A DNA stretch of 64,000 bases, taken from positions 35,677 through 99,676 of the IMG/VR virus record IMGVR_UViG_3300045988_183236. One strand, 5' to 3'. This DNA is from a virus. The notes below the pieces were generated by a model. The model did not search any database, was not told where the DNA came from, and saw nothing but the letters and a program-made list of their open reading frames with translations. This document shows, piece after piece, positions 18,796-51,000 of the stretch; position 1 is the stretch's first letter, and each line of letters begins with the position of its first letter. The translations under genes were made by a program, and so were the position numbers.

Positions 18796-18855
18796 ACCAT
18801 CTGCCACGTGGAGGCTTTCTCATGGATGGTTGACGAAGCAGATATGTGCTTCGCC
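18796..18855. other. conserved covarying hairpin motif, instance 1 (core GCCACGTGGAGGC) plus second hairpin
   Basis: ACCATC-tGCCACGTGGAGGCtttctcat-GATGGT then CGAAGCA-gatatg-TGCTTCG; in 5' leader of gene 17562-18695. Confidence 0.4.
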
Positions 18856-19054
18856 AGTGTCGCAACCGTCTTCGCCACTCGACACAATTTCGGTTTGAAT
18901 TTATCCCCGTAAAATCGCATGTCCATGCTGCGCGGAGAGGATAAAATTCTTCGTGGTATGGTTTCGGAGTTCCGCGCCTGATTGGCCGTACTACACGCAA
19001 TGCAGTACAATACCCCAGATACCTTTGGCGAAAGGAAGCGAAAGGGTGTCTGGA

Positions 19055-19130
19055 TGGAGAAGGGAGATGGCCTCGAACCATCGATACCCTGCTTTGCGGC
19101 AGGTGCTTTATCCAGCTAAGCTATCCCTCC
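19055..19130 (-). tRNA. tRNA-Cys(GCA)-like with non-canonical anticodon loop (6-nt CGCAAA or 8-nt CCGCAAAG; no U33)
   Basis: GGAGGGA-TA-GCTT...AAGC-A-CCTGC-CGCAAA-GCAGG-GTATC-GATGG-TTCGAGG-CCATC-TCCCTTC-T-CCA; 76 nt. Confidence 0.5.
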
Positions 19131-19160
19131 ATGATGGCGGGTCAAGCCCGCCAAATAGCG

Positions 19161-19553
19161 TTACGCAAACTGGAAGTCGCCGTACTGAGTCACGGCGCGT
19201 TCCAGGCGCAGAGGAATGGTTTTTGTGCTCTTCTGAGTGATGTCTTCGCGTGCTACCTGAGCTTCACTCACGCCAGCCGCCTGCAGGACTTCATACAGAT
19301 TGGAAGGACCAGTACCAGCATAACCGCAAGTCAAGCCATTAACCTGAAGTGTAAAGCCGTGCAGATGCGGTGCCAAGCCGGGCACGAAATCAAGTTCGAC
19401 AATGACCTCATCGCTCTTATCGTTCACACGATTGACCGAGATGGCGCGGACGTTCTGATTGCCAAGCATCCCAATCAGCTTTTTGGCTGCTGCAGCGGTT
19501 TCAATGGTAGTTGTACCTTCGACATTGATAATTGCCTGTTCCATAAGTTTCAT
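19161..19553 (-). CDS. hypothetical protein
   Basis: 130 aa ORF between tRNA genes. Confidence 0.45.
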   Translation of the reverse strand: MKLMEQAIINVEGTTTIETAAAAKKLIGMLGNQNVRAISVNRVNDKSDEVIVELDFVPGLAPHLHGFTLQVNGLTCGYAGTGPSNLYEVLQAAGVSEAQVAREDITQKSTKTIPLRLERAVTQYGDFQFA

Positions 19554-19582
19554 CTCCTTTCTATTATCGCTTCATTGGGTAA

Positions 19583-19658
19583 TGGGGCTTGATGGCAGGT
19601 TCGAACTGCCGACCTGCGCGTTACGAATGCGCTGCTCTACCAACTGAGCTAATCGAGC
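19583..19658 (-). tRNA. tRNA-Thr(CGT)
   Basis: GCTCGAT-TA-GCTCAGTTGGTAGAGC-A-GCGCA-TTCGTAA-CGCGC...GGCAG-TTCGAAC-CTGCC-ATCAAGC-C-CCA. Confidence 0.65.
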
Positions 19659-19930
19659 ACGATAGGGTGTTTTATGCTGGTCACCCCTTGAGCGAGAAGC
19701 CAACTCGCATCCAGCACCATTCGATAGCTGCATCGATGGATTCTGCTTTATACCCTTTCCGCTGTTTTCCGGTCTTATTCGCGACTAACACCGGGACTTT
19801 CGAATACTTTCAGGCACAGCACCTGTTTGTCTATTATTTTTGAGGCTGTCTCATCGACATTTGGACAGCGGACCACAAGTGGACCATGCTCACCAAGTTT
19901 AACGTCGTGGCGTACGGTGACTGCGACGTG

Positions 19931-20005
19931 TGGAGCAAGTAGCGGGGGTCGAACCCGCGTCTCCGCCTTGGAGGGGCGGAGTATTAGCCGTTATACGATA
20001 CCTGC
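19931..20005 (-). tRNA. tRNA-Gly(TCC) with C33 (loop CCTCCAA)
   Basis: GCAGGTA-TC-GTATAACGGCTAATAC-T-CCGCC-CCTCCAA-GGCGG...GCGGG-TTCGACC-CCCGC-TACTTGC-T-CCA. Confidence 0.6.
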
Positions 20006-20374
20006 ATAAAATTGCGGGTGAACCCTCACTTAGCCCCGCCATGACATCCGTTTAGTAGGTCGTCATCCCCGGATGTCATCTTCACACCACCTGACAATCT
20101 TGCGAACCTCATCGTTGACGATACGCGAGAATCCAAGAAAGCGCTTGGGTGTTGGTCAACTTCAAATTTTGAGCCCTGTCGTTGATTCCCTGTCAAATCG
20201 GGTTAACGGTTGTCGTTGGGCTGTGTGTGAGACTGCGGCGAAACTTACCAGTTGCCGTGCAGCAATCTCGCCTTTACGGCTGTGTCGCGTCTGGATGCGC
20301 CCCGACTTGACGGGGATGCTCGTACGTTTGCATGCTTCTAAGACATTCGTCAGCAGCCGCAAGAGCCGCTGTCC

Positions 20375-20408
20375 GCCACCCGCCACGAGGAGGCCGCCTT
20401 AATGGGTG
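20375..20408. other. conserved hairpin motif, instance 4 (core GCCACGAGGAGGC)
   Basis: CCACCC-GCCACGAGGAGGCcgccttaat-GGGTGG; flanked by direct repeat ctgtccgcca. Confidence 0.35.
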
Positions 20409-20478
20409 GCATGCTGTCCGCCAGATGTTGTGTATAGCATCGTATCATGTGATTTCGATACATCCAACGGATAGCGTC

Positions 20479-20554
20479 TGGAGCTGGAAATCGGACTTGA
20501 ACCGATGACCGACTGATTACAAATCAGTTGCTCTACCAGCTGAGCTAAACCAGC
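20479..20554 (-). tRNA. tRNA-Thr(TGT) (two mismatches at base of acceptor stem)
   Basis: GCTGGTT-TA-GCTCAGCTGGTAGAGC-A-ACTGA-TTTGTAA-TCAGT...ATCGG-TTCAAGT-CCGAT-TTCCAGC-T-CCA. Confidence 0.55.
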
Positions 20555-20600
20555 AAATACAAACATTAGCCAGATGCCCGGAACACGGAAACATCTGTTG

Positions 20601-20660
20601 CCCACCGTCCGCCGCGTGGAGGCTGTTTGCTTGGACGGCTGGCGCGGAGTTACCCGCGCC
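20601..20660. other. conserved hairpin motif, instance 2 (core GCCGCGTGGAGGC) plus GC hairpin
   Basis: CCGTCC-GCCGCGTGGAGGCtgtttgctt-GGACGG then GGCGCGG-agtta-CCCGCGCC. Confidence 0.4.
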
Positions 20661-21104
20661 AAAGAAAGGAAGGATATTACTATGAAACGGATGATTTTCA
20701 CGCTTCACCTGTGTCAGCTCAAATGAAGCCATGCGACCAAGATTGGGGAAAGGAAAACCTTGATGTCTCAGGAGCCGTTCCTCTTCCTGAGAACAATTGT
20801 ATTATACCATATATGTGGTATCCGGTCAATGAAAAGACACAATATATAGTGTCTAAATTGTAAACAAACATTAAGATACCACTATATCTTGTGGTTGGGG
20901 CAAGCGCATCAAAAATGCCTTGTGGTTCCGGCAGATTGCAGGAAAGTCAGCAAATTTTTAGCCGAACCTACCATGGAAACCACAGCGCCACTTTTCGCGT
21001 ATAGGTCGGCAATGGAATCTTCCTGCCCCTATGGTTAGTCCTTCCCAAGAAAACGCACCCACTGTGTACGCTTGATTGGCTTGCTGTCGAAAGCACAGTG
21101 CTCG

Positions 21105-21617
21105 TCATGATAATCCGGCATCAGTTTCCGCTGGAAACACCTCGTACACGCTGACATACAGCATCCCCGGCTTGTAGTCAGCGTACTCAACCGAGCGTTT
21201 TTGGTCGTATACTTTCACGTCTGAGTCATCGTCCGCCGTGAGCCAAAGATACTTGACGTGCTCAGCATAGCGCGGGTCTTCGATACGATAGCTCTGCCCC
21301 TCTTTGATTTTCAAATGACGTGCATTTGCTTGGGCACGCGAAAACTCAACGAATGCGCCGTAGTCGCCAATCACGATTCGGTTATACCCGCTGGCAATGA
21401 CCGTGCCGCTTCTGGTTTCGAGTTTGGTCGTATCGCCGGACATATTGCACCATTCCGGCAAAGTTTCTTCAAATTCTGCCCGCACATCCTTGAAAAAGGT
21501 ACGTGGGATGGGCTTGTACTTGTATTCGTAGGCAAGCTGCTCTTGAAATTTGAGCATTCGAATGCCGGTCTCTGAGATTTCATGCTTCATCATTAACTCA
21601 TCCACCTTTTTTCCCAC
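21105..21617 (-). CDS. hypothetical protein
   Basis: 170 aa ORF. Confidence 0.45.
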   Translation of the reverse strand: MGKKVDELMMKHEISETGIRMLKFQEQLAYEYKYKPIPRTFFKDVRAEFEETLPEWCNMSGDTTKLETRSGTVIASGYNRIVIGDYGAFVEFSRAQANARHLKIKEGQSYRIEDPRYAEHVKYLWLTADDDSDVKVYDQKRSVEYADYKPGMLYVSVYEVFPAETDAGLS

Positions 21618-21728
21618 TGGTCGTACTCAGCGACTTCTCGTTTTACGGTTTTGCCGTCTTTCTTATATACAGTGATACGTTGTGCATAGTTCACCGTGTG
21701 CTTTTGTAGCTGTTGCAGGGCTTCTTTC

Positions 21729-21938
21729 TCAGAGTTCACCTGCTTCATCCAGAACAACTTTCCCCTGCTCACCGTAGTCACCCGTATAGCTGCTTCGGAT
21801 GATTCGTGCGGCACGGTCATTCTCCTGCTCTTCGTAGGCTTTGACAATAAAATCGACATATGCTTTGAACTTCTGCTCGTCACCGTCTCGATGTGCTTCA
21901 ATGAGTTTTCCAATCGTCACAACGTTGATTTGGTTCAT
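21729..21938 (-). CDS. hypothetical small protein
   Basis: 69 aa ORF; overlapping alternative ORF 21593-21913 makes exact gene model uncertain. Confidence 0.35.
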   Translation of the reverse strand: MNQINVVTIGKLIEAHRDGDEQKFKAYVDFIVKAYEEQENDRAARIIRSSYTGDYGEQGKVVLDEAGEL

Positions 21939-22023
21939 GATTTTTTGTCCTCTCTTTCCATACTTTAATTATACTCTTCCGTCAGACTGAAGTGTGATTT
22001 TCTAACGATTGTTAGCGAAAAAT

Positions 22024-22701
22024 TCATAATTTGAAAGGGCAAAAGCTGAACGTTGGAACGTCTGAATCAGGGTTTTCAACCTGGTATTTGATGACTCTTT
22101 TTTGCGCCCCTAAAGCCTTGTATGTCTGCTCAGCATTCACGCATAAGCCGTTGGCAAAGAAGAGAGTGGAACCATTGCGTTCACTGATATTTTCGGCAGA
22201 ATACATTTTTGGCTTTCTGATTCCGGGGTCAAGATGGATTCCACCACGCATCAGCTTTTCAGCATAGAACCAGACATCAACGCGGGAGAAAATGTAAAGC
22301 AGCTGCGTGGTTCTGAAATAATAGAGAATCTGGTCCGCACCACTCCTGTATACCCAGCCCGGGGTGTGCCATAAAGGGTCGATGCCATCCCGATACCGCC
22401 GCGCCACCCGTTGTTCGTTCAGAGCGTCAGGCACCATGGAGAAGTAGTCCACCGAGGTTTCCAGGTAGAAATTTCCGGTATTGTGACTGTCCACTTTCGC
22501 TTCCAGGCCAAAGGTCTTACCATTCTTCTTCCAGACAATGAAATCGGTATCTTTGTCTTGATATGATTTATCCTGAGTCACGTCATCGTAATGGCTAATA
22601 CCATGATTCACTTTGATAATCGGGTCGTTAAGGAATTTAAGGAATTTGCGAGCCAAGTCTTCTCCGAATTTTCCCTCATCGAGTTGCTTTGACATCTTAA
22701 A
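22024..22701 (-). CDS. PD-(D/E)XK nuclease-like protein
   Basis: Start likely MIAWEE/MSKQLD after AAA gene stop; DTDFIVWKKNGKTFGLEAKVD fits D...E-x-K restriction-endonuclease-like motif. Confidence 0.45.
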   Translation of the reverse strand, partial: FKMSKQLDEGKFGEDLARKFLKFLNDPIIKVNHGISHYDDVTQDKSYQDKDTDFIVWKKNGKTFGLEAKVDSHNTGNFYLETSVDYFSMVPDALNEQRVARRYRDGIDPLWHTPGWVYRSGADQILYYFRTTQLLYIFSRVDVWFYAEKLMRGGIHLDPGIRKPKMYSAENISERNGSTLFFANGLCVNAEQTYKALGAQKRVIKYQVENPDSDVPTFSFCPFKL

Positions 22702-22735
22702 CTGACGAGGGCTTTCTTCCCAGGCTATCATACTT

Positions 22736-23650
22736 TTACACGGCATCTGCCGAATTTTCAGGCAGCTGCGATACGATATGTGCAACGATACGTTCTGTAC
22801 AGGCATTGACAACGGCGCTGGCAGTCCGCTGTTCACGCAGCGAATGGCAGAGTTCGTCGAGTTCGGATTCCGTGAAGGGATAGTCTGCCGAAGCAAGGAA
22901 CTTCTTGCACAGTTCTTTCATGTCATCGTCGCCTAAAGGCTTGACGCGGTGTTTGAAAGTGAATCGGCGAATGAGGGCTTCGTCAAGGTTATCGACGCGG
23001 TTTGTGGTGCCGATGAGAATGACATCGTTTGGGAGCCGGTCCAATTCCTGCATCAAAGCAATGGTGACGCGGCTCATTTCAGCGACATCATCGCGGCTGC
23101 CACGGCACATTCCGATAGCATCAATTTCGTCAACGCAGAGAACGCAGGGCGTGCGCTTTGCGTAATCGAACACTCTGCCGATGTTCTGCTGTGTCCGGCC
23201 AAGAGCAGAATTGACAAGGCCAGAAAATTTCAGGAAAACAAACGGTAAATTCGCCTTGTGTGCAATGTAGCGGGCCAATTCAGTCTTACCAACACCAGGA
23301 AGGCCCGTCAAAAGCAAAGAGCAAGTATAGTGGATGCCAAGCTCCTTGATGGCTAAAGCTGCTTTTCTGGTGGCCAAGAGCTTGTTGATGACTGTTTCTT
23401 CCTCCTCGCGGAGCAGGAACCGGCTCTCAGGGAAATTTGTAGCGTCCTCCGCAATCAAGAGACTTTCCAGGTTGGCAGGCAGCTGAATGAGTTCCGGTTT
23501 CAAAAGATTCAGCTTTTTGAGTTCAGCCTCCTTAAACCGGGCATCTTTTTCAGGGACATTCTTTTCAAGCATGATTCGGCACTGAGTCTGTGCGTTTCGA
23601 ATATCGCCATCCACCACAAATCGAATTAAATTACGTACGTCGTCTGTCAT
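22736..23650 (-). CDS. AAA+ ATPase
   Basis: Walker A GLPGVGKTELA, Walker B VLCVDEIDAI, sensor-1 IGTTNR, Arg finger region; 304 aa. Confidence 0.7.
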   Translation of the reverse strand: MTDDVRNLIRFVVDGDIRNAQTQCRIMLEKNVPEKDARFKEAELKKLNLLKPELIQLPANLESLLIAEDATNFPESRFLLREEEETVINKLLATRKAALAIKELGIHYTCSLLLTGLPGVGKTELARYIAHKANLPFVFLKFSGLVNSALGRTQQNIGRVFDYAKRTPCVLCVDEIDAIGMCRGSRDDVAEMSRVTIALMQELDRLPNDVILIGTTNRVDNLDEALIRRFTFKHRVKPLGDDDMKELCKKFLASADYPFTESELDELCHSLREQRTASAVVNACTERIVAHIVSQLPENSADAV

Positions 23651-23669
23651 TTCATTTCCTCCTAAAAAA

Positions 23670-23700
23670 GAAATAGGCCGCCAAATGGCAGCCTGTTAAT
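23670..23700 (-). terminator. hairpin terminator-like element between HTH gene and AAA gene
   Basis: AGGCCGCCAAATGGCAGCCT with A-run upstream (minus: hairpin + UUUCUUUUUU). Confidence 0.4.
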
Positions 23701-24664
23701 ATGAGGTTATATTCTGATTTTTGTTTCTACTGCAAATAGTGTTTACCGTCGAAACAGAGAGATTATATTCAGTGGCAAGCGCCTGCACCTTCTCGCCTTC
23801 CCTGTGGCGTTTAGCAATCAGTGCATTACGTTCCGTGTTTTTTCGCGGACGGCCGCGTTTCTGTAAAATTCCAGCTCTGACATTTTCCTGATGAAACGTT
23901 TCATAAATCGCCGTTTTAGAGATTCCGTATTCCTTGGCAATAGTGCTGACCGAGACCCCTCTTTCGATTTTGCTTCGAATATCGGAATTCCTTTGATTGG
24001 TCTTGTCTTTCAGCGCCTTGTGATAGTATTCCTGACAGGTTTTTCCAATTTGGCGCATGTCCTTGTAAAGAGTGGATTTTGAAATACCGTATTTCTCACA
24101 GATGTCTTTTGAGGACGTTCCTGCCTCATAATCCGCAAGAATCGCCTTGCGCCTTTCATCCAACTTTTTGGAATTTGTATGTAAATGCCCTGCAAGGACG
24201 GTACGGACACTGCTTCGAGACAAAAAGTATTTTTTGGCGATTTCCTTATCAGTCATTCCGGCTTTCGCATCTTCCAACATAGCCGCATTGCGAACTTTCG
24301 TGGCAGCAGACTGCTTTTTCTTGTTCTTCTTAATCGTAGCTTGAGCGTATTCAGAAACAGTATAGTAGCACTGCTGATAAGTCACGCCATGCTTCTTTGC
24401 GATTTCAGCAACCGTCATCCCGGCTTTCGCATCTTGAATCATAGCTTCGTTGAGAGGTGCTCTTTTTGCTTTCTTTGCAAGATTCTTTTCTTTTGCTAGG
24501 TCTCTCACCATGGCATAACAATAAGAGCTTGAAAAATACGTTTCCTTGGCGATTTCCTTGACAGTTTTGCCAGAAAGATACATTTCCCGAACCTTTTCGC
24601 GGTCTTCTTTGACCTGCTGCTTCGCAACATCTTTCTTTGATGCAGCCATGCAATTATTCCTCAC
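23696..24664 (-). CDS. tandem HTH-repeat DNA-binding protein (6 HTH units)
   Basis: Repeats such as TVKEIAKETYFSSSYCYAMV, MTVAEIAKKHGVTYQQCYYTV, SSKDICEKYGISKSTLYKDM, VSTIAKEYGISKTAIYETF (resolvase/sigma-r4-like HTH). Confidence 0.6.
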   Translation of the reverse strand: MRNNCMAASKKDVAKQQVKEDREKVREMYLSGKTVKEIAKETYFSSSYCYAMVRDLAKEKNLAKKAKRAPLNEAMIQDAKAGMTVAEIAKKHGVTYQQCYYTVSEYAQATIKKNKKKQSAATKVRNAAMLEDAKAGMTDKEIAKKYFLSRSSVRTVLAGHLHTNSKKLDERRKAILADYEAGTSSKDICEKYGISKSTLYKDMRQIGKTCQEYYHKALKDKTNQRNSDIRSKIERGVSVSTIAKEYGISKTAIYETFHQENVRAGILQKRGRPRKNTERNALIAKRHREGEKVQALATEYNLSVSTVNTICSRNKNQNITSY

Positions 24665-31194: not shown

Positions 31195-31197
31195 GCG

Positions 31198-34131: not shown

Positions 34132-36852
34132 TCAGCCGAAGCTAAGCTGTTCCGAATCAGTCGAGAAGAAAGTTGCCTTTTTCTTAGCCCGCTCTTTTGC
34201 GCTCTTGCTCATAGGCTTCTTTGCCCCATCCAGATGATGCTTGCTCTTGTACGAATAGCCTTTCCAGGCAGCCTGATAGGAAAGGTAGCCATATCCGTTA
34301 GCATTGTCCAGGACCTTATCAGTAGCCGTCTCGACCACAACATAGCGCGGCTGATTGGGCTTTGAAAGTTCAGGACTCTTCACGACACGGTAACTCTTCT
34401 TTTCATCTGCACCGTACTTGGAAAACGGCAATGTGGATTCCTTTTGGGGTTTGGCTTTTGCCTTGGTATTTTCGGTATTTCCCTCGACGGAATCCACCAG
34501 TTCAGAGTCAAAGAACGCCTCATCAAGAGGTACGTTGGGGCTGTTCTGCTTCTTTGCTTCTTCGATTTTCTGATACATGGCATCTTCGGCGCGGCGCATC
34601 TTCCAAACCTTGATGAGGGCTTTTTCCGGGAACGTGATGGTCAGTCCCTTTTCCGCCAGCATCTTTCGGACAGCAGGCGTAGCGAAAGACTTGTATTTTG
34701 CATACGGTCCTTCTTTGTGCTGCTCGATTTCATGGCTTACCTGAGTCATGTATTCCTCAAACGCCTTGTTCTGGTCGAGCCAGAACTCGACTTCGGAATA
34801 AGGAGAATCATGGTCCACGGTTTTTTGAAGTTCGCAACTCTTCGCATAAGCAAGACAAGCGTCTTTCACATCGGCAAAACCAAGCCCAAAATTATCGTTC
34901 AGAGTGTTTCGGCGTGCTCCATCCATCACGAAATAACGGCTTCCTTGCTTGATGATGGCGATACCATCTCCGGAAGTGATGGCGGTGGGTTCTTCCGCAT
35001 ATCCGTCGTCAGTCCAGCGGTCGATAATCGATGCCGTATCCTGTACAAAGCCTTTTCGGCAAGTGTAATAATCTGCGCCGTTGTAAGCTCGTTTCGTGAT
35101 GCACTTGAGGATTGCGTCAATCAGAGCGTCCTTATCCTTGATTTTTACGCTGTACATCAGGTTACTTTTCACGTTCCAGACAACGCCATATGGCAGCCCC
35201 AATGCCATCATGGAACACGCACACTGCAGAAAATGCTTGTGTGCCAGACTGCTGATGAACTTGATGCAGTAGACGGTGCTGTTCTTTACGACATCCGCAA
35301 GGCCCGAGGCATAAATCACTTTATGGTCATTAGTATGGATGTCGATATCTCCGCGTGCCTGAACATACTCATCGGGAGTGAACACGGTGCCAAGCCGCAT
35401 ACTGAGCGACATTTTGGCTTTTGCGCTCACAAAAGGAGGCTTGACCTGTTTTACATACCGGCACTGATTCGTTTCGAGTGCTGTGAGCAGTAGAACCTTA
35501 TCCTCGACCGTTGCGCCTTTCTTGATTTTCAAATACTGCATGTCCTTGTGTAGGTCCATGTAATAAGCGAGTGCGTCATCGATATCATAGGAATTAAAGA
35601 AGCCTGCCTGCATGTAGATACTGATACAGGGGGATAAATCAATCATTGCATCTGCCGTCTGGATATCAATGGTCGTGGTATCATTACGTTCAATCGGTGT
35701 GACTTCCAACAGCTTATAGCAGGCATCTACATCCTCGATGAATTTATGGTCAAACATTTCAGAGAATGCGAACGGATGCGGAAATCCGCGAAGAGTTTCA
35801 GTTGGGGTCATCAGAGATTTATCGCTCAACGGATGGTCTGAGTTTACGAAAATGATTCGCTGCTTTCCTCGGCTTGCTGCGACACAAAACAGATTCCGAA
35901 GAATCTCATATCGTGCCATCGGTTTGTTTGTGCGAGACGACCAGTATTCTTCCGTGAAATCAAACACAACGCAGATAGGCCGCTCCATACCTTTGCTGCC
36001 GTCAAAAGTCGTGAAGATACCAACATCCGAGGAGGGTGCTACTGCTTTATTCCCGTCATTGTCTGCGATACTTGCATAGACATGATGCTTGTCATAGAGG
36101 TTCCCCGGTCGATTCTCCAAGTCGTTGAGCACCTTCGTCATGGCTCCAATTCGAGCACCCAGGCAAAGGACATTTTTGGGGTTCTGCTTATTCAGGAACT
36201 CTGTTACTTCATCGACCGACATCTGTTCCACGATACAGGAGCTATTTACGCCATTGATGGTCTTGCCCCAGATGTTGCCGAGTCGTTCTGCCAAGTCATG
36301 AGAAATACGGAAGCATTTCGTGAAAACCACCTGTTCATGGCGGCCGAGAAAAACCTGCATGAACTCCCAGACATCCAGCGCTGTATCATCGTAGATTTTC
36401 TGCTTCATATCGCCCACTGCGACGATTTGAAGGCCCGGATTCTTAGAGTGGATATATTTGAGCAGTTCTGCAATCTCGTCATTGATATCCTGATACTCGT
36501 CAATGATAAGAGTATCAATCGGCGGAATCGGAATTTTCTTTTCCAATACCATGGCAAGCTGTTCGCCCTGTCCGCAATTCCGGATTCCCTTTTTGTTCAG
36601 CAGCAGGCTTGCAAATCCATGATAGTTCTGAACCAGCACATTGCCATTCTTGATTTTGTCTTTGGCATCAAGTTTGAGTAATCGGTTGTAGGTCAAGTAC
36701 AAAATACGCCGTTCTGGTGGATATGCATCGCAGAGTACGTTGATAGTCGATGTTTTTCCGCTGCCGATGCAGGCGTCACACAATACGTTTTTGCCCGACA
36801 ATGCCAAATGTACGAATTCCTGCTGTTCGCTTGACAAGTCGTTCAGTGTCAT
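34132..36852 (-). CDS. UvrD/Rep-like superfamily 1 DNA helicase with long C-terminal extension
   Basis: Start MTLNDL (AAGGAG RBS); Walker A ACIGSGKTST, motif II LIIDEYQDIN; basic Lys-rich C-terminus. Confidence 0.65.
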   Translation of the reverse strand: MTLNDLSSEQQEFVHLALSGKNVLCDACIGSGKTSTINVLCDAYPPERRILYLTYNRLLKLDAKDKIKNGNVLVQNYHGFASLLLNKKGIRNCGQGEQLAMVLEKKIPIPPIDTLIIDEYQDINDEIAELLKYIHSKNPGLQIVAVGDMKQKIYDDTALDVWEFMQVFLGRHEQVVFTKCFRISHDLAERLGNIWGKTINGVNSSCIVEQMSVDEVTEFLNKQNPKNVLCLGARIGAMTKVLNDLENRPGNLYDKHHVYASIADNDGNKAVAPSSDVGIFTTFDGSKGMERPICVVFDFTEEYWSSRTNKPMARYEILRNLFCVAASRGKQRIIFVNSDHPLSDKSLMTPTETLRGFPHPFAFSEMFDHKFIEDVDACYKLLEVTPIERNDTTTIDIQTADAMIDLSPCISIYMQAGFFNSYDIDDALAYYMDLHKDMQYLKIKKGATVEDKVLLLTALETNQCRYVKQVKPPFVSAKAKMSLSMRLGTVFTPDEYVQARGDIDIHTNDHKVIYASGLADVVKNSTVYCIKFISSLAHKHFLQCACSMMALGLPYGVVWNVKSNLMYSVKIKDKDALIDAILKCITKRAYNGADYYTCRKGFVQDTASIIDRWTDDGYAEEPTAITSGDGIAIIKQGSRYFVMDGARRNTLNDNFGLGFADVKDACLAYAKSCELQKTVDHDSPYSEVEFWLDQNKAFEEYMTQVSHEIEQHKEGPYAKYKSFATPAVRKMLAEKGLTITFPEKALIKVWKMRRAEDAMYQKIEEAKKQNSPNVPLDEAFFDSELVDSVEGNTENTKAKAKPQKESTLPFSKYGADEKKSYRVVKSPELSKPNQPRYVVVETATDKVLDNANGYGYLSYQAAWKGYSYKSKHHLDGAKKPMSKSAKERAKKKATFFSTDSEQLSFG

Positions 36853-44433: not shown

Positions 44434-44628
44434 AATGTGTATCTCCCTTTTGGATTTCTTATTATATGGATATTGCACTTTTTTGCAAGGGCTTTTAACC
44501 CAAGCACCTTTTTTGGCTGTTTGTCAATACCCGCAGAATATCAAAGTGTTGTTAAAGTTCAGGTGAAAAAACGTTCTGGAACCAACAAACCCGGGACTCC
44601 CGCCTCTTGCATTTGTTTACCGCCTTTT

Positions 44629-45336
44629 TCAGCCTGCGTTCTGGCTGTTCTTCTTGACATCGGCTGCAACCTTCAAGCGGCGTATGTACTCTTCCAGTTC
44701 CTCCAGTGTATAGGTCTCTTCCGTCTCAATCGGCTCTTTGGCATCTTTGGGCAGATAGCTTTTCGTACAGACAAACTCAGGGTTCGTTACAGGGCAGTCC
44801 AGGACAGTTTCATCGTACAACTCTTTCTCGATGTTGTGGTAGAGAAAGAACGGGATATGCCGCCCGCAATCGTCATCCGATTCTGTCCAATCCGGGAGTT
44901 CCTGGATTTCGCGGCCGTATGTTTCATACAATACCGTGTTTGCCCGAGCATTGCCAAGCAGGGTATTGTACAGCTTGAAGTTTTCCCTCACTTCACGGCG
45001 AAAGAACTTCGGGAGCGAGAACTCCTCGTATTCCAGCTTCGTATCAGAACGTAGATAGTAGCGGTACTGCGCCTCGACCGGCATGAATTCAGTCGTGTTG
45101 TTCAGCTCTTTCAAAGCGTTGAGTCGTTCACTCGTTTTTTTGACATTATGTCTTGCAAAGCCCAGATACGCTGAAACCAGAATCATCAGAAGAAGAGCTG
45201 CAAGGATAATGACAATGAGCCATTCCTCGCCTTCCATATGCGGCAGGTGTTTCAGAATACTATCCTGGATAGCATAAGGAAGGTCATCGAACCATTCATA
45301 GAACCCAATCGGGTCCTGATAAGTATGGGGAGCCAT
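44629..45336 (-). CDS. hypothetical membrane-anchored protein
   Basis: 235 aa, one TM segment (WLIVIILAALLLMILVSAYLGF). Confidence 0.45.
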   Translation of the reverse strand: MAPHTYQDPIGFYEWFDDLPYAIQDSILKHLPHMEGEEWLIVIILAALLLMILVSAYLGFARHNVKKTSERLNALKELNNTTEFMPVEAQYRYYLRSDTKLEYEEFSLPKFFRREVRENFKLYNTLLGNARANTVLYETYGREIQELPDWTESDDDCGRHIPFFLYHNIEKELYDETVLDCPVTNPEFVCTKSYLPKDAKEPIETEETYTLEELEEYIRRLKVAADVKKNSQNAG

Positions 45337-45354
45337 GATTCACCCTCACCGCCA

Positions 45355-46242
45355 TCAGTAAATAAACTTGCATTCCCGGCGTTCCCGGCCATTGCCGCAC
45401 CAGTAATGCCGCCAGCGGGGAGTTTTGCCTTCCCCATTCTTTTTGTATTCTTTGGCCGCATTCTCACCAACGGTATACGGTTTAATGTTGATGCGTTGTG
45501 CTTTTCCCTGGAATACAAAAACCGGGCGGTCACGCTTCTTGGAAGTTTCCAAGCGGACATCAGGGTTCTTACTGGCAAGATAGTAGGCACACAGGATTGC
45601 CAGGCGAACATAAGGTGTGCCGCCGTCAAAGACCGAAGGAACTGCTTCCATCACAGCCGGTACGCTGATACCATTTACCTGCCGCTGCCCGGCTGCCTTT
45701 TCCAGGTATTCTTTCGTGCTCCGAGTTGCTTCCGTCAAACTCTGGTTTTCTTTGGCCCAGGCAGGCAGAGTCAGGAACGTGAAATCATCATGGCTGCCTT
45801 TGGCCGGGCCGACAAGAACGATGCCGAAAGCAGTGGTCTTCTCTTTCTCTTCGAATTCCACATGCACGAACATACCGTTGTAGTCGTAGCTGTCATACAC
45901 CGGGATAAAGAAATCACGAATCGGAAGCCGCTGCAGGATATCCTGATGAATCGCCATGTCATCCGTATCCATAAGAATTTTCTGGAACTCGTAGTCAAAA
46001 TCATAGACCGTCTTCGTCTGGTTCCAGCAGCCGATGGTGAAGCAGGGGAAAATCTGTGCAGCAAGGACACGCTCGAAACCCGGCGTGTTCATTTTCTGCG
46101 CTGCCGTCACACAGCAAAGCGTTGAAGATTTGTTGTACTCTTGCAGAGTCTTCCCACACGGGTCACTGAACCCAAAATGGTTACGGGTCTGTTTGGTAAC
46201 GGCATTCGCCGTCAATGCGATTCTCAGCTGTTCCTTGGTCAT
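45355..46242 (-). CDS. hypothetical protein (intact paralog of IS-disrupted gene at 10597-12636)
   Basis: 295 aa; homology to 12296-12636 fragment. Confidence 0.5.
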   Translation of the reverse strand: MTKEQLRIALTANAVTKQTRNHFGFSDPCGKTLQEYNKSSTLCCVTAAQKMNTPGFERVLAAQIFPCFTIGCWNQTKTVYDFDYEFQKILMDTDDMAIHQDILQRLPIRDFFIPVYDSYDYNGMFVHVEFEEKEKTTAFGIVLVGPAKGSHDDFTFLTLPAWAKENQSLTEATRSTKEYLEKAAGQRQVNGISVPAVMEAVPSVFDGGTPYVRLAILCAYYLASKNPDVRLETSKKRDRPVFVFQGKAQRINIKPYTVGENAAKEYKKNGEGKTPRWRHYWCGNGRERRECKFIY

Positions 46243-46835
46243 TTGCTATCCTCCAAAAGTTTATTTTTTGTCATATGCAAACAGCGCTGAACCATGCCGA
46301 TGGTGAATTTTCGAGTCGTTAGCACTGTCATGAGCTTTCCTTCATTGCCCTTGATGGTTCGTTCCAGAATGTTCCAGGATTCGCTTTCGGGCTTGACATT
46401 GGTATATAAGTCCAGCGGAACATACAACCACGCGATTTCACTGTCCCGCATCACGGCATAGGATTGCAGGATTTTATCAATTGCCTCTACGCCGACCTTC
46501 CAGCTGGTGATTATGGTCCGGCTGATATCGTATACAATCAGGTGCGGTGCTTCATTTGCTTCCGTATCAACTTCAATGACATGAGCAATATACGGTTTCC
46601 CGTCCACCAGCTTATACCGATAAATAATGGACGGAATTTTCTCTCGAATCAATCTGTCATGTTCAAGCGCCAAGTCCGCGTACTCGCCCGTTGCATCAAT
46701 GATGATGACTCGTCCCTGACAGGTCCTCAGTGTCGCTCTAATTTGCTTGCGGCACCAGGCGAAGCAGCTCTCTTTGTATTCTGTTGAGACAAGAAAAAAG
46801 TTATTACCAGGTGTTATGATAGGTTCGTAGCTCAT
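46239..46835 (-). CDS. hypothetical protein
   Basis: 198 aa; start overlaps stop of upstream gene; promoter 46872-46899. Confidence 0.45.
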   Translation of the reverse strand: MSYEPIITPGNNFFLVSTEYKESCFAWCRKQIRATLRTCQGRVIIIDATGEYADLALEHDRLIREKIPSIIYRYKLVDGKPYIAHVIEVDTEANEAPHLIVYDISRTIITSWKVGVEAIDKILQSYAVMRDSEIAWLYVPLDLYTNVKPESESWNILERTIKGNEGKLMTVLTTRKFTIGMVQRCLHMTKNKLLEDSK

Positions 46836-46871
46836 TGTGTAACCTCAGCTTTTGTACTTCATCTGTTCTTA

Positions 46872-46899
46872 ATTGTCTGCGATTCGCACAGTTTCGCAA
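46872..46899 (-). promoter_or_regulatory. TGTGCGAAT-class promoter
   Basis: RC TTGCGA-aac-TGTGCGAAT-cgca-GACAAT. Confidence 0.5.
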
Positions 46900-46932
46900 C
46901 ATGATATTGTCTGTGAATGCCAGGCGTTGGAA

Positions 46933-47571
46933 TTACAACCCCTTGATGAAGTTCGGGTCATAGTGAGACAGGACATCCTCATTCAGGCAGTACTCGCACT
47001 TAATAGTTGTCGCGTCATTCGTATACACGCCGCGGTTTGCGTAGTATATCCCATCGATATAAATGGCGAACACGACGGACGGCATCAGTGCCTTTTCATT
47101 CACTGCGTAAATCAGGTATTCATCCAGATTATCCTTGACCACCGCGCTCTTATTGATTTGGGCGATTTGCTGTCCGCAAAGGAATACAGGGCAGCATACT
47201 CCTTCTTTTCCAAAACCAATTTTGTAGCTCTGGTATTCCTCGCCATACAGCTGCATGGTGATAGAATTGTATCCTTGGAGGAATCCGGTTTTTGTATGGA
47301 TGACGGAAATCTCGCCTACCGTGCGGTTGTTCTCACAGATAGCAAAAGGGTGTCTCAGAATATCTTTCGTGTTGATGCCGCGCATGTACGCCCTTGCGTC
47401 ACCAGCTGGCATGTATTGCAGCAGGAACTTGGAATCATTCAGCCGGATGCCATAACCTTGCCGCAGCACTTTCGGAATATAGTGTGCCTGCCCGATAACG
47501 GCCTTGCCTTTCACGATATCGAAGGTGAACTCATATCCTTTCGATTTGGTTTGCTTAACAATCCATTGCAA
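46933..47571 (-). CDS. hypothetical protein
   Basis: 212 aa. Confidence 0.45.
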   Translation of the reverse strand: MQWIVKQTKSKGYEFTFDIVKGKAVIGQAHYIPKVLRQGYGIRLNDSKFLLQYMPAGDARAYMRGINTKDILRHPFAICENNRTVGEISVIHTKTGFLQGYNSITMQLYGEEYQSYKIGFGKEGVCCPVFLCGQQIAQINKSAVVKDNLDEYLIYAVNEKALMPSVVFAIYIDGIYYANRGVYTNDATTIKCEYCLNEDVLSHYDPNFIKGL

Positions 47572-47999
47572 AACTCCATCGCCTCCTTTTGCCTTCTCAC
47601 TCGCTGGATAACCTTGTAAATACCAGGAACCGAGAGCTGATACTTTTCGGATAGTTTCTGCACCGGCACGCCACTCTCGTATTCTCGAAAGATATTCTCG
47701 TTGCGCGGTCTTTGTCTAATTTTGATGCGCTCGTTTCTGCGGTTTTCAGTCAGGCCCGCATCGTTGGCAACCATGCCGCAATATCCTTCTGTCACGTTGA
47801 ATTTCGCAATCATTTCCTTGAGAGGGACACTGTTCTTGTATGCCGCAAGGATTTCAGCTTTTCTGGCATCCTCAACCTGTGCCAGCTGAATTCTGGCCTC
47901 CTGTTTCGCGTCGTCTAACGCTCGATAGCATGTACGGACGCTCAACCTGTATTTTGCGGCAAGCTCCTCAATGGAATAGCCGTTGCCGTAGTCTTTCAT
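47511..47999 (-). CDS. tandem HTH-repeat DNA-binding protein (3 HTH units); N-terminus uncertain
   Basis: YSIEELAAKYRLSVRTCYRAL, VPLKEMIAKFNVTEGYCGMV, VPVQKLSEKYQLSVPGIYKVI; annotated ATG at 48110 lies inside promoter 48083-48110, so start is further downstream (ATG 47999 or non-ATG near 48050). Confidence 0.5.
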   Translation of the reverse strand: MKDYGNGYSIEELAAKYRLSVRTCYRALDDAKQEARIQLAQVEDARKAEILAAYKNSVPLKEMIAKFNVTEGYCGMVANDAGLTENRRNERIKIRQRPRNENIFREYESGVPVQKLSEKYQLSVPGIYKVIQRVRRQKEAMEFCNGLLSKPNRKDMSSPSIS

Positions 48000-48082
48000 G
48001 ATATTGCAATTTCGCTCAATCAACTTTTTGCTTGCAAATTTTGAGATGGTACTCAGCTCCTTTGCTTTACGCTTTATTTCTG

Positions 48083-48110
48083 ATTGTCTGCAATTCGCAC
48101 AAATGGGCAA
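48083..48110 (-). promoter_or_regulatory. TGTGCGAAT-class promoter
   Basis: RC TTGCCC-att-TGTGCGAAT-tgca-GACAAT. Confidence 0.5.
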
Positions 48111-48161
48111 CTATTTTTGCGAAATAAGAAGGCAGGCTCCGAAAAGAACCTGCCATGCATA

Positions 48162-49103
48162 TTAGAGGTTAAAGATGCCCAGCCAGCGCCGAAACTTGAT
48201 GCCGAACAATTTCTGTGCCTGCTCGTAGTTCATGATAAGCTGGTTGCCGCCAGAAATCTCTGCTTCGAGGGAGTTCGGCAGCTCATCTGCAATGTATTTC
48301 AGTTCGTACCACGGTCCATCCGGCGGATAGGAGTAAATGAGCCTGTTCTGCTTCTTATCGACCCGGAACTTGCTCGGGTCAGCCTGCCATGCCAGTTCGA
48401 TTTTTTCAATTGCAGCACGACCAATGCTCTCATCACCCATATAGTCGTTATAGTACAGGATACGCACATAGTCCGGCAAATCGATTCCGCATGCCTCGAA
48501 GATATCTGCAATGACACTAGACGAAGCGTGGAAGATATCCGGGAAGTATTCCTTGCCATTCGCATTTTCACGCATTTCCGTCGTCATCTCATCGATGCAA
48601 ACAAGCATTCGGCGGACATATTCGCCATAGAACGCGGTTGTCAGCTCCGACATACTCTCATTCACACGCTTCGAGTTCTTGGCACCGCGCTCGTTGTCGA
48701 TTTTAGCACCAATTCGACAGATGATAGCACGTTTCGAGAGGTCTTTTGTCAGCGAGGTAATTTTATTCGATGTGATAGATACAGCAGGATAGTTCACGAG
48801 CCTGTCCGAGATACCCCATTCATCGTTCTTGATTACCCGTTCTGAATGGTTCTGAAACTGGGTCTTGGCGAGGTCGTCGATGTTCAGCGGCAGTCCCTCA
48901 CAAACTCGTTTGAGGCCGTCGATTCTTGTGGCTGTGAAATCCTCCGTCGTGTTCATCTTAACGGTCTCACCGCACATGAGTTTGACAAGAAATTTTATAA
49001 AGGTCGTCTTGCCGCCGTTTGAGTCGCCGTATATAACGCCGTACATCGGGAACAGCTTCGTATCGTAGTTGTTCCTCGATGCGAAATACCGCAGATACGC
49101 CAT
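48162..49103 (-). CDS. D5/P4-primase C-terminal-like (SF3-type) P-loop NTPase
   Basis: YGVIYGDSNGGKTTFIKFLVKLMCGE matches lyGpGgnGKStf of P4/D5 family; overlaps upstream ORF by ~137 nt in another frame. Confidence 0.55.
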   Translation of the reverse strand: MAYLRYFASRNNYDTKLFPMYGVIYGDSNGGKTTFIKFLVKLMCGETVKMNTTEDFTATRIDGLKRVCEGLPLNIDDLAKTQFQNHSERVIKNDEWGISDRLVNYPAVSITSNKITSLTKDLSKRAIICRIGAKIDNERGAKNSKRVNESMSELTTAFYGEYVRRMLVCIDEMTTEMRENANGKEYFPDIFHASSSVIADIFEACGIDLPDYVRILYYNDYMGDESIGRAAIEKIELAWQADPSKFRVDKKQNRLIYSYPPDGPWYELKYIADELPNSLEAEISGGNQLIMNYEQAQKLFGIKFRRWLGIFNL

Positions 49104-50328
49104 GAACGGAGTAGCCAGATACCAAGGTCATGTACTTGAAGTAGTCCTTCTTGGCCTGTTCGACATCGCCGTAAAAGTAGTCCATGCCTGAGAAGAACTT
49201 CTGGATGCTCTTGATGTTCTTTGCCACCTCGCTGAGATTCGGATTGAGGTCGATATTCTCGTCGTTGAAGGTCATGGTCCCGGCATCATAGTCGATATGT
49301 AATTTCGGGAGCTGCTTAACTGCCTCAGCTGCCACACGCCGCACCTCGGTATATCGTTTCCCGAAAACGCGCATCGGTTCCGCTGCCACTACAATACGAT
49401 TCGCCTGTACCGGCATCTTAGGCATGATTGGCTTGACGAGTTCCTGCATTTTCTTGACATCGGCAACTATCTCGTATTCGACCTCATCCTCAGGCTGTGC
49501 CTGTTCCAGAAAGACAAGCTTCTGCTTTTCAATAGACTGAAAGACGGGCACTTCTTTGATGTTCTCTTTCAGATAATCTTCCTGGTTCATGGTGTTCACG
49601 ACTGCCTTATAGGAGACATTGTCGGAGCAGGTTTCCTTGAAGGTCTCGAACAGAACCTTGTAATGCGAAAATGCCGCCTCGTCATCGAAGCAGACGATAT
49701 TCTCTCGCTGAATGCCGCAAAACGCCGATGCCGACATATTCGCACTGCCGGTGATGACTCGGACACGCTTATGGTCAGTGCTCTCCAAGATATAGATTTT
49801 CTCGTGCGATTTCGTGTCCCGCGATACATACAGCTGCAAGGACCCGTCATCGAGGCGGTTCGCAAGGTTCCCTGCCGACTTAGACTTAGCGAGCCGCTGC
49901 ACGCTGTCGATTTGCACCGACATGATGGCAGCAATGTCGTTGGCGATGATTTTCTCGCATCCGAACACGACTTCCGCATACGAGAACTTGTTGATGACCT
50001 TATTCACGAACTCGATACCGGACGAAAAAGTGATAGCATAGAGTCTGTCGAACCCGTCAAACAACTCTTCCCAATTCGTTTCGACCGTATCAGCATATAC
50101 CGCCTTCACAACATTCAGCGCCTGCGTGGAGATGCTCACCTTTGCCTTCGTGGTCTTGTTCGCCACGAGTTTGAAGGGCTTATCCGTCTGCCCTTCACTG
50201 TCCCCCATGTCCTCGCCGGGGTCCAAGAGTTCTTCCGGGCCTTCTTCGGTATATTCGGGGCTTTCCGATGCCATCATGTCCATGAGCGACATCTGATTTT
50301 CCAAGTCGTTTGTTTTCCTTCTTGCCAT
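48967..50328 (-). CDS. hypothetical protein, possible primase-like or HKD/PLD-like domain; C-terminus overlaps NTPase gene
   Basis: 453 aa; HEKIYILESTDHKRVRVITGSANMS loosely resembles HxK(x)4D...GSxN; acidic N-terminus. Confidence 0.45.
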   Translation of the reverse strand: MARRKTNDLENQMSLMDMMASESPEYTEEGPEELLDPGEDMGDSEGQTDKPFKLVANKTTKAKVSISTQALNVVKAVYADTVETNWEELFDGFDRLYAITFSSGIEFVNKVINKFSYAEVVFGCEKIIANDIAAIMSVQIDSVQRLAKSKSAGNLANRLDDGSLQLYVSRDTKSHEKIYILESTDHKRVRVITGSANMSASAFCGIQRENIVCFDDEAAFSHYKVLFETFKETCSDNVSYKAVVNTMNQEDYLKENIKEVPVFQSIEKQKLVFLEQAQPEDEVEYEIVADVKKMQELVKPIMPKMPVQANRIVVAAEPMRVFGKRYTEVRRVAAEAVKQLPKLHIDYDAGTMTFNDENIDLNPNLSEVAKNIKSIQKFFSGMDYFYGDVEQAKKDYFKYMTLVSGYSVHGVSAVFRIEEQLRYEAVPDVRRYIRRLKRRQDDLYKISCQTHVR

Positions 50329-50670
50329 TTTGTATCTATCCTTCCTAAACAGATTTGGGTCATTTGTTGGTTTGGGTATAAAAGCGAGCGGTTACTTTTT
50401 AGCAACCAATTATTCATTCATGGTTTTTGTTTTTTCGGTTAAATCTGATTTTAGGTATTCCTAGTTTCATTTTACCACTTTAGCTGTCCCATTGTCCGGA
50501 CTTTAAACTACTCGGCACAAGTATTATCCGCCTCAGCCGGATTTCATTCATCTTTTCTTGTATTCTCTTCGCGTTTCGTTTAATTTCGTGTTGTTTCGCG
50601 AATACCAAAAACAGCCGCTATATTTATTACAAATACATCCTTGCATCGCTTTTTTTGTTCTCCAATTCCC

Positions 50671-50698
50671 ATTGTATGCAATTTGCACGGCTGTGCAA
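50671..50698 (-). promoter_or_regulatory. TGTGCAAAT-class promoter
   Basis: RC TTGCAC-agc-CGTGCAAAT-tgca-TACAAT. Confidence 0.5.
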
Positions 50699-50767
50699 CT
50701 GCCCACAGAGTATCAAACTGCTGGTAAAATCGGCTCGCTTCGCCACTGAATCGCTGGATTCACAAAA

Positions 50768-50812
50768 CAAAAAGCCGTCCACCCAAAAAGATGAACGGCA
50801 TATATTTTTGCA
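50768..50812 (-). terminator. rho-independent terminator
   Basis: RC GCCGU-ucaucuuuuugggugg-ACGGC + UUUUUGUUUUG. Confidence 0.55.
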
Positions 50813-50936
50813 GGATGGTTATGCTTGCGCTGCTTCTGTTTTTTCTGCCATTGTACAAGGCGGCGACCATATCGACCGCCTCATCCATCGAGTGGCACTG
50901 GTAGCTGACGGCCGTGCCGCTTCCGACCAGCATGTT

Positions 50937-51000
50937 CCCGCTGCTCGCCGCGTGGAGGCTGTCTTTTGGAGCAGCTGCGCGGACAAAACCGCGCTTTTGA
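50937..51000. other. conserved hairpin motif, instance 3 (core GCCGCGTGGAGGC) plus GC hairpin/T-run
   Basis: GCTGCTC-GCCGCGTGGAGGCtgtcttttg-GAGCAGC then GCGCGG-acaaaa-CCGCGC-TTTTGAG; lies just 3' of vWA gene on opposite strand. Confidence 0.4.

Follow-up and report, generated by a model that had tools for sequence, protein, structure and literature searches.

Probable HDV-like ribozymes, three complete and one truncated, on the minus strand of a putative gut-phage genome

Ribozymes resembling that of the hepatitis delta virus (HDV) adjoin the tRNAs of gut phages, and in vitro cleavage has been demonstrated for the tested members of one such group, the theta ribozymes (Kienbeck et al. 2024, Nat Commun 15:1559, PMC10879173). 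Theta ribozymes are minimal forms in which a loop L4 of 6–7 nucleotides (nt) replaces helix P4, as in GG-GUAACG-CUAA; a copy counts as tRNA-associated if its cleavage site and a tRNA 3' end are at most 5 nt apart in either direction, and theta ribozymes frequently go with stop-codon recoding and suppressor tRNAs, a feature that is not defining (PMC10879173). Analysis of 64 kb of viral DNA (positions 35,677 to 99,676 of IMG/VR record IMGVR_UViG_3300045988_183236; the whole stretch is hereafter called the window) showed four copies of a motif that are very probably HDV-like (delta-type) ribozymes encoded on the minus strand; three of them, Rz1, Rz2 and Rz3, are complete and predicted to self-cleave, and the fourth, Rz4, is a remnant. 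Their positions are given below, with scores for the Rfam family RF02682 and for R1, a covariance model built in this work.

20559–20639, minus strand: Rz3, complete; RF02682 50.0 bits; R1 76.8 bits; pairings checked base by base
20340–20410, minus strand: Rz2, complete; RF02682 34.1 bits, E = 5e-4 (match 20339–20410); R1 85.2 bits; pairings checked
18763–18830, minus strand: Rz1, complete; RF02682 40.7 bits, E = 1.5e-5; R1 44.9 bits; pairings checked
50937–50975, minus strand: Rz4, remnant; RF02682 32.6 bits, E = 2.6e-4 (match 50904–50975); R1 40.9 bits

The best-matching curated family for all four copies is RF02682 (HDV-F-prausnitzii), with drz-Fpra-1 of Faecalibacterium prausnitzii. It shares with them the P1/P3/P4 layout, the sequence GGCAAC after P1, GGCUAA before P2 and a source in gut Bacillota, and differs in loop L3, the consensus of which is UCUACGU versus UCCACGY here. 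We take the type member to lie upstream of the bacterial glmM gene and not in a phage tRNA cluster. The genomic HDV ribozyme (RF00094) has the same fold, an L3 of UCCUCGC (UCCUCGU in Rz2), GGGCAAC after P1 and GGC-NAA before P2, but P4 of the window copies is much shorter.

Theta and other minimal HDV-like ribozymes share the double pseudoknot and, almost letter for letter, the core, which runs P1, J, P2, ACC or GCC, U, CC, NCGY, GGU or GGC, P1', GG, ..., CUAA, P2'. Like the window copies, theta ribozymes occur in gut phages that have tRNA clusters and share the strand of these tRNAs. The window copies differ from them in having neither the short L4 nor a cleavage site at a tRNA 3' end, and the window shows no sign of recoding and has no suppressor tRNA. 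The first 53 nt of Rz3 occur verbatim at least 44 times in Supplementary Data File 4 of the theta study, for example under the gut-phage catalogue identifiers uvig_594648 and MGV-GENOME-0377605; this file contains matches to the first, looser motif, and Rz3 is parsed there with a short 3' half, GCAA, CAGA, UGUUUCC (PMC10879173). Rz3 fits the looser published motif only via this alternative parse. The fold, the family and the phage and tRNA setting are already known, and one copy is already in the published list; the new points are modest, namely, the P4-bearing form, the helix before the cleavage site, ribozymes located directly before tRNAs, and evidence of cores acting as points of recombination or deletion.

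Covariation, conserved residues and strand

The core pattern GCCRCGWGGAGGC, scanned on both strands with at most one mismatch, matches four times in the window, versus 0.13 expected from dinucleotide-preserving shuffles (0 of 100 reached four). An earlier reading of the letters alone (hereafter the sequence-only reading) had described four hairpin instances, and all four are present at the coordinates it gave. On the minus strand GCCRCGWGGAGGC reads GCCUCCWCGYGGC, in which helix P3 (GCC/GGC) of an HDV-like ribozyme encloses its loop L3 (UCCWCGY). Each element runs 30–45 nt further toward lower coordinates than had been seen, and the relevant strand is the minus strand. The outer stems described as covarying are helix P1, the complementarity of which was confirmed base by base (ACCAUC/GAUGGU, GCCACCC/GGGUGGC, GCCGUCC/GGACGGU and GCUGCUC/GAGCAGC), and what appeared to be loop material is the 5' strand of P2. 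The GGAGG proposed as Shine–Dalgarno-like is the complement of the CCUCC of L3, two Cs of which pair with GG as P1.1. Of the hairpin description, the structure with compensatory changes was retained, while the hairpin itself is only the P1/P3 part of a double-pseudoknotted minus-strand ribozyme.

A default Rfam scan of the window, one of the checks proposed with the sequence-only reading, returned 17 tRNAs and one ribozyme match (RF02682, 20559–20639, minus strand, 50.0 bits; gathering threshold 44 bits). RF02682 matched the other three instances, on the minus strand, in more sensitive local scans, and no other Rfam family fits. The model of RF00094 stayed far below its threshold of 50 bits (Rz3, 31.4 bits; Rz4, 20.7 bits). 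Since the default scan gave one of four copies, routine annotation of gut phages can miss such elements, and the present annotation is useful there.

Another proposed check was a covariance model. The seed of R1 consisted of six sequences of equal register, and only P1, P3 and four P4 pairs were supplied; MAFFT seeds with heterogeneous J1/2 lengths or with the Rz4 orthologue gave misplaced gaps, and the equal-register seed was used instead. With filters off, R1 found exactly four copies in the whole window; the next match had 8.5 bits (E = 1.8). Over 65 sources, which are related IMG/VR contigs (designated L with a number below), the model found 143 copies, 86 of them distinct. By pattern scan, at least 118 IMG/VR viral contigs carry the core together with the GG of P1.1, in 76 distinct variants; many of these contigs share the 229-nt and ~1580-nt core spacings of the window. 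The metagenome search suggested with the sequence-only reading thus did yield further instances.

Pairs were counted on the alignment of the 86 distinct sequences using the full pseudoknotted structure, to which P2 and P1.1, absent from the model, were added. Standard pairs fill 94.3% of cells, compared with 77.4% after column shuffles and 32–55% when the 3' partners were slid by 1–3 columns. Changes on both sides occur in 18 of 22 pairs, including all seven of P1, all six of P2 and three of four of P4. Compensatory change, which the sequence-only reading had argued from four copies, is far more strongly documented by these seven P1 pairs, and its proposal of a selected nucleic-acid structure is borne out by the covariation. 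P2 is of particular weight as a helix outside the model: its pairs changed on both sides in 6/6 cases, and its 5-pair helix is paired in 83.6%. For the first pair of P3 the alignment has 69 sequences with G-C and 17 with A-U.

The order of strands P1-P2-P3-P3'-P1'-P1.1-P4-P4'-P2' is found in Rz1, Rz2 and Rz3 and in the alignment. The column of the catalytic C contains C in 85/86 sequences and is followed by A-rich positions; in HDV-like ribozymes this C precedes N-A-A. In the L3 columns U is present in 85/86, the first C in 85/86, the second C in 81/86 and G in 84/86; the Gs that form the partner of P1.1 are present in 81/86 and 86/86. Freely varying helices combined with fixed catalytic residues are how an active HDV-like family should look. 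At the cleavage site the pair is GC in 39 sequences, GU in 30 and AU in 14, so the G1.U wobble is not required in this group. The transcribed strand is assigned as minus because the cleavage-site pair is G.U in 30 of 86 sequences, a pair that turns into a mismatch when the opposite strand is read, and because all 630 of 630 tRNAs within 3 kb of a ribozyme share its strand.

The individual copies and competing readings

Rz3 has the canonical form: cleavage is predicted between 20640 (A-1) and 20639 (G1), at a G1.U wobble. Helices P1 (20633–20639/20604–20610) and P2 (20624–20630/20559–20565) have 7 base pairs (bp) each, P3 is formed by 20621–20623/20611–20613, P1.1 by 20618–20619/20602–20603, and P4 has 6 bp (20592–20597/20571–20576). 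L3 is UCCACGC, J4/2 is GCUAA with the predicted catalytic C at 20569, and the 3' end lies 4 nt before a tRNA-Thr gene. Two candidate 3' halves are contained in Rz3 (20587–20603 versus 20559–20570, minus strand), a short one, GCAA-CAGA-UGUUUCC, and the full one with P4, GGCUAA-UGUUUGU. In the L014 and L079 variants a G-to-A change in P2 replaces G.U by A-U in the long P2 and disrupts a G-C pair of the short P2; the full-length form is favoured by this one substitution.

Rz2 is predicted to cleave between 20411 (U-1) and 20410 (G1), with a P1 of 7 bp beginning with G1-C. Its L3 is UCCUCGU, P2 is AAGGCG/UGUCUU (6 bp, two of them G.U), P4 is CAGCGGC/GCUGCUG (7 bp), and J4/2 is ACGAA with the predicted catalytic C at 20349. 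The register of this P4 was obtained by pairing the natural L014 variant by eye, where G-C is replaced by A-U at one position and C-G by U.G at another.

In Rz1 the predicted cleavage falls between 18831 (A-1) and 18830 (A1), at an A1-U pair. P1 has 6 bp and a C.A mismatch at its inner end; at this position relatives have C-G or U-A, and the window has the intermediate state. L3 is UCCACGU, P2 is GAGAAA/UUUCUU, P4 is CGCAGC/GCUGCG, and J4/2 is GCUGA, with the predicted catalytic C at 18773. The P4 helices of the window copies have 6–7 bp and loops of 3–15 nt.

The fourth copy adjoins the following gene:

51002–52696, minus strand: gene of a vWA-domain protein of 564 amino acids (aa); PF00092, E = 2.8e-15; directly upstream of the Rz4 module

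Rz4 lies just past the stop codon of this gene, in agreement with the context given in the sequence-only reading. It retains the 5' 39 nt of a ribozyme, namely, the 5' strands of P1 and P2, P3, L3, the 3' strand of P1 and GGG, and is without P4, the catalytic C and the 3' strand of P2. Complete orthologues are present in L038, L052, L071, L076, L083 and L098; intact orthologues score 57–64 bits with R1, against 40.9 for Rz4. The intact form reads GCUGCUC-CAAAAGACA-GCCUCCACGCGGC-GAGCAGC-GGGCAAC-GGGAGACAGUCCC-GGCAAAU-UGUCUUU, followed by GGAGG and ATG. Relative to L071 (2810–4091), L052 and L098, the window has a deletion of 1.28 kb, which is also found in L091. The deletion is flanked by the microhomologies GCAGCGGGCAAC and GCAGCGGCAAC (window 50937–50944); the breakpoint microhomology GCAGCGG(G)CAAC occurs once at P1'/J1/4 of the ribozyme and once within a 69-codon gene. 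Together with the missing parts of the ribozyme, four small genes were lost. Rz4 is a dead remnant of this microhomology deletion; of the four instances of the sequence-only reading, three stand as complete copies and this one as a truncated remnant.

In a search by eye for a canonical 3' half of Rz4, the sole P2 candidates were one of 3 bp and another at a distance of 150 nt, and such a half was rejected, its loss being explained by the deletion. Three of the four deleted genes encode paralogous proteins of ~70–140 aa, and an in-frame C-terminal fragment is left from ATG 50933.

Hybrid copies were observed in two relatives. In L063 (2576–2646) the 5' half of Rz3 is joined to the 3' half of Rz1, the intervening 1.8 kb tRNA block is gone, and the P2 strands are mismatched. 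In L087 (5068–5141) a 5' half from another ribozyme is joined to the 3' half of Rz2. Judging by these two hybrids and the Rz4 remnant, the conserved cores seem to serve as recombination or deletion sites at which tRNA blocks are added or removed.

Several points weigh against the view that Rz1, Rz2 and Rz3 cleave themselves. Activity in this genome is a prediction from sequence. Only Rz3 reaches the RF02682 threshold (50.0 bits, versus 40.7, 34.1 and 32.6 for the others). In Rz1 the canonical G1.U is replaced by A1-U, and P1 contains a C.A mismatch; Rz2 has G1-C. A-1 precedes three sites; according to one report (PMC1874588), this is a context of slow cleavage for the genomic HDV ribozyme. A ribozyme 4 nt upstream of a tRNA has no evident purpose, as RNase P cuts there anyway. 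The z-scores of nested folds are unremarkable (-0.3 to -1.0; -0.3 to -1.7 on either strand), and are uninformative, as is to be expected with a pseudoknotted RNA.

The sub-threshold scores of three of the four copies and the departures from the canonical form in Rz1 and Rz2 would also fit copies that are all ribozyme-derived yet non-cleaving, kept as stabilisers, insulators or recombination sites, as would the demonstrable truncation of Rz4 and the hybrids with unmatched P2 strands in relatives such as L063. This explanation is improbable. The catalytic C, the U and G of L3 and P1.1 are near invariant in the 86 sequences while the helices covary, which indicates selection on the active fold. 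The A1-U pair of Rz1 recurs in 14 of the distinct sequences, which belong to three or more P1 lineages unrelated in sequence. G1-C is found in 39 of 86, more often than any other pair, and also in published theta sequences, a class with tested members that cleave in vitro.

There is even less reason to expect strict theta ribozymes, the job of which would be to make the exact 3' end of the neighbouring tRNA. The core NCC-U-CC-NCGY-GGN ... GG ... C-UAA is common to published theta ribozymes, the copies sit in a phage tRNA cluster, and a tRNA 3' end lies at most 5 nt from the cleavage site in 9 of the 86 related sequences; but the nearest upstream tRNA 3' end is 68 nt away for Rz2 and 224 nt for Rz1, there is none for Rz3 and Rz4, the CCA of tRNA-Thr is already encoded, and the complete window copies have a P4 of 6–7 bp, not an L4 of 6–7 nt. 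Plain hairpins on the plus strand or in DNA, serving as leader or attenuator, as protein-binding site, as bidirectional terminator or as single-strand origin, are highly unlikely and the poorest of these explanations: P1 and P3 fold on the plus strand too, TTTTG follows one adjoining hairpin there and GGAGG resembles a Shine–Dalgarno sequence, but conservation and covariation reach 30–45 nt past the hairpin into P4, J4/2 and P2 and are sensible only on the minus strand, which has many G.U pairs, most flanking genes and all tRNAs, and no other Rfam family fits, so that the RNA leader, protein-binding site and single-strand origin of the sequence-only reading were set aside.

Self-cleaving HDV-like ribozymes are therefore the preferred reading, and an unexplained repeat becomes a precise annotation: three probable self-cleaving ribozymes and a remnant, with cleavage sites predicted to the single nucleotide in a phage tRNA and mRNA operon.

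Predicted transcription unit and the helix upstream of the predicted cleavage site

The three complete copies are apparently part of one minus-strand unit extending from promoter to terminator. Its elements, in the order of transcription, and the hairpin adjoining Rz4 are as follows:

20801–20829, minus strand: predicted sigma-70-like promoter, TTGACC-17 nt-TATAAT with extended -10 TG; ~150 nt upstream of Rz3
20641–20660, minus strand: hairpin GGCGCGGG-UAAC-UCCGCGCC; ends 1 nt before the Rz3 site; has a G.U pair on the minus strand
20479–20554, minus strand: tRNA-Thr(UGU) with encoded CCA; located between Rz3 (5') and Rz2 (3')
20411–20478, minus strand: 68-nt trailer of tRNA-Thr; folds as a single long stem-loop (-22.2 kcal/mol) that stops 2 nt short of the Rz2 site
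18832–18855, minus strand: 9-bp hairpin GGCGAAGCA-CAUAUC-UGCUUCGUC; ends 1 nt before the Rz1 site; has a G.U pair on the minus strand only
17562–18695, minus strand: secreted-protein gene, 377 aa, signal-peptide-like N-terminus; likely ATG at 18695 behind AAAGGAG; downstream of Rz1
17487–17514 and 17369–17384, minus strand: two terminator-like sites flanking tRNA-Ser(UGA); predicted end of the unit
50977–50994, minus strand: hairpin GCGCGG-UUUUGU-CCGCGC; starts 7 nt past the vWA stop codon; ends 1 nt before the position of the Rz4 site

The promoter, with 11/12 hexamer matches, is joint best among 17 promoter-like sites in 14000–21700. It is followed by a structured leader of ~150 nt with a terminal hairpin, Rz3, 4 nt, tRNA-Thr(UGU), the 68-nt trailer, Rz2, tRNA-Gly, tRNA-Thr(CGU), an odd tRNA, a hairpin, Rz1, the 377-aa gene, tRNA-Ser and the terminators. 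Two features of the sequence-only reading are contained in this arrangement: two copies flank a tRNA gene, here tRNA-Thr(UGU), and one copy is in the 5' leader of the secreted-protein gene.

The segment of Rz3, tRNA-Thr, trailer and Rz2 (20340–20640) has an exact core-to-core spacing of 229 nt in most listed relatives (L001, L005, L013, L016 and others); one has 349 nt. If both Rz3 and Rz2 cut, an RNA of ~230 nt would be released. The odd tRNA (19055–19130, minus strand) has a 6-nt anticodon loop, CGCAAA; it is reported by ARAGORN as tRNA-??? with a 2-base anticodon, and scores 46.4 bits with the Rfam tRNA model. In at least 7 related contigs it is likewise located 224 nt before the Rz1 orthologue, and it is therefore conserved and not a sequencing error.

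According to the proposed mechanism, Rz3, Rz2 and Rz1 would fold and cut at their own 5' ends during transcription of the unit 20829–17369. As is usual for HDV-like ribozymes, each cut would leave the upstream RNA with a 2',3'-cyclic phosphate and the ribozyme with a 5'-OH, and the precursor would be divided into the leader RNA, a unit of Rz3, tRNA-Thr and trailer, the tRNA block and the mRNA. The Rz3 cut would free the ~150-nt leader, with Rz3 itself staying as the 5' leader of tRNA-Thr for removal by RNase P; the Rz2 cut would fall 68 nt past tRNA-Thr, and the Rz1 cut would part the tRNA block from the secreted-protein mRNA. The fourth copy, Rz4, was located between the vWA gene and the gene that follows it.

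A second GC-rich hairpin, described for three instances in the sequence-only reading, does adjoin them, at 18832–18855, 20641–20660 and 50977–50994. These hairpins had been said to follow the cores; on the transcribed strand they precede the predicted cleavage sites. At the hairpin of 20641–20660, relatives carry GGCGUGGG, which adds a further G.U; its plus-strand counterpart would be a mismatched A.C. The T-run was also found as described, as TTTTG after the hairpin at 50977–50994 on the plus strand.

Two other identities were considered for the hairpins and rejected. Intrinsic terminators do not fit: on the minus strand the ribozyme comes 1 nt after the hairpins and there is no U-run, and the sole TTTTG sits on the plus strand, where no gene ends. 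Remnants of tRNA minihelices do not fit either: examined by eye, the hairpins have stems of 6–9 bp, loops of 4–6 nt and no T-loop sequence.

The upstream 30 nt of all R1 matches were clustered into 32 unrelated groups. A stable hairpin ends 0–2 nt from the site in 20 of the 32 groups, versus 346 of 3000 random positions (11.5%) in the same contigs; in most of the other groups a tRNA acceptor stem takes the place of the hairpin. A scan with the published minimal theta-type core showed a similar but weaker pattern, with 46 of 95 unique copies abutting a called tRNA 3' end. Among the remaining 38 upstream clusters, 9 have a strictly abutting hairpin (4% in controls); hairpins 3–4 nt off or uncalled tRNA-like T-arms are present in several more.

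On the downstream side, a tRNA 5' end lies within 15 nt in 21 of the 86 distinct ribozymes, including Rz3, and the ribozyme then forms the 5' leader of the tRNA. Examples with gaps of 3–13 nt are L024 7087–7163, L011 5017–5090, L011 1302–1375, L021 1775–1849 and L086 2542–2605. Intact Rz4 orthologues have the order stop codon, 7 nt, hairpin, ribozyme, ribosome-binding site, ATG.

Two roles are the most plausible for the helix. It would shield the ribozyme from mispairing with upstream RNA, as the P(-1) hairpin of HDV does, and it would give the upstream fragment a hairpin-capped end with a 2',3'-cyclic phosphate, resistant to 3' exonucleases; the downstream fragment would begin with a 5'-OH buried in the compact ribozyme. 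It counts against this part of the proposal that both roles are inferred and that the data do not tell them apart. In HDV, a stable upstream P(-1) hairpin sequesters flanking sequence and restores cotranscriptional cleavage; this helix spans -54 to -17, whereas that of the window ends 1–2 nt from the predicted site (PMC6097654).

As a tentative generalization, for which the chances are somewhat below even, the conserved unit may comprise a stable helix, 1–2 nt, the cleavage site and the ribozyme, and may be a host-independent maker of hairpin-capped RNA 3' ends that does not stop transcription and insulates what follows, either a tRNA 3–15 nt downstream or a ribosome-binding site. If this is so, the tRNA-adjacent theta layout would be a special case in which the acceptor stem acts as the helix, and ribozymes directly 5' of tRNAs (21/86) would represent a second, undescribed use.

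At the RNase III sites between the early genes of phage T7, a polycistronic transcript is cut and a protective hairpin ends the upstream RNA; synthetic ribozyme insulators, such as RiboJ, provide a defined, context-independent 5' end ahead of a ribosome-binding site. By analogy, the layout of intact Rz4 orthologues resembles both, with the difference from the T7 sites that here the RNA would cut itself, leaving a 2',3'-cyclic phosphate and a 5'-OH.

The words 'hairpin', 'stem-loop' and 'upstream' are absent from the main text of the theta study, which treats adjacency to tRNA 3' ends only, not ribozymes 5' of tRNAs (PMC10879173). The window provides context for that work in the form of P4-bearing relatives with the same core, often located away from tRNA 3' ends and often just 5' of a tRNA or ribosome-binding site. 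Almost all of these have a helix directly abutting the predicted cleavage site on its upstream side, an arrangement shared by many unrelated lineages. If the module is a general phage route to stable RNA ends, HDV-like ribozymes that are not tRNA-associated would gain a function that was left open there (PMC10879173).

Genomic setting, genetic code and neighbouring genes

The window looks like part of a large gut-phage genome: its relatives are IMG/VR viral contigs, several of them of 140–390 kb, and a tail-protein PHROG and other phage families match. It contains 18 tRNAs, all on the minus strand, where most genes flanking the ribozyme copies are also located. Compared by megablast with GenBank phages, 20 kb of the window gave only short, tRNA-sized matches and no close phage.

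The host is probably a member of the Bacillota. A core-pattern scan of bacterial and archaeal genomes, useful only as a host hint, gave 120 stretches, and R1 was run on 80 of them (L119–L198). The model confirmed 5 copies on four contigs of metagenome-assembled genomes (MAGs) of gut Bacillota (L125, L128, L153 and L184), namely, three copies on two Ruminococcus contigs and copies in Eubacteriales and Lachnospiraceae. One weak match of 23 bits was found in an Opitutaceae MAG. The other matches among these 80, mostly in environmental and high-GC genomes, were rejected as chance by R1.

The genetic code appears to be standard. No suppressor tRNA was found among the 18 tRNAs of the window, and there is no sign of stop-codon recoding: coding density is 0.841 with code 11, versus 0.874 with code 15 and 0.885 with code 4, a gain smaller than the 5–10% used as the recoding criterion in Kienbeck et al. 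(2024).

Searches of Pfam and PHROG with the 377-aa protein encoded downstream of Rz1 gave no family match. Between two tRNA blocks lies a gene of an HD-domain phosphohydrolase (16431–17180, minus strand; PF13328 HD_4; phrog_990). The product of another minus-strand gene (10730–11992) is a protein of 420 aa in which an RRXRR domain (E = 4e-59) precedes an HNH endonuclease domain.

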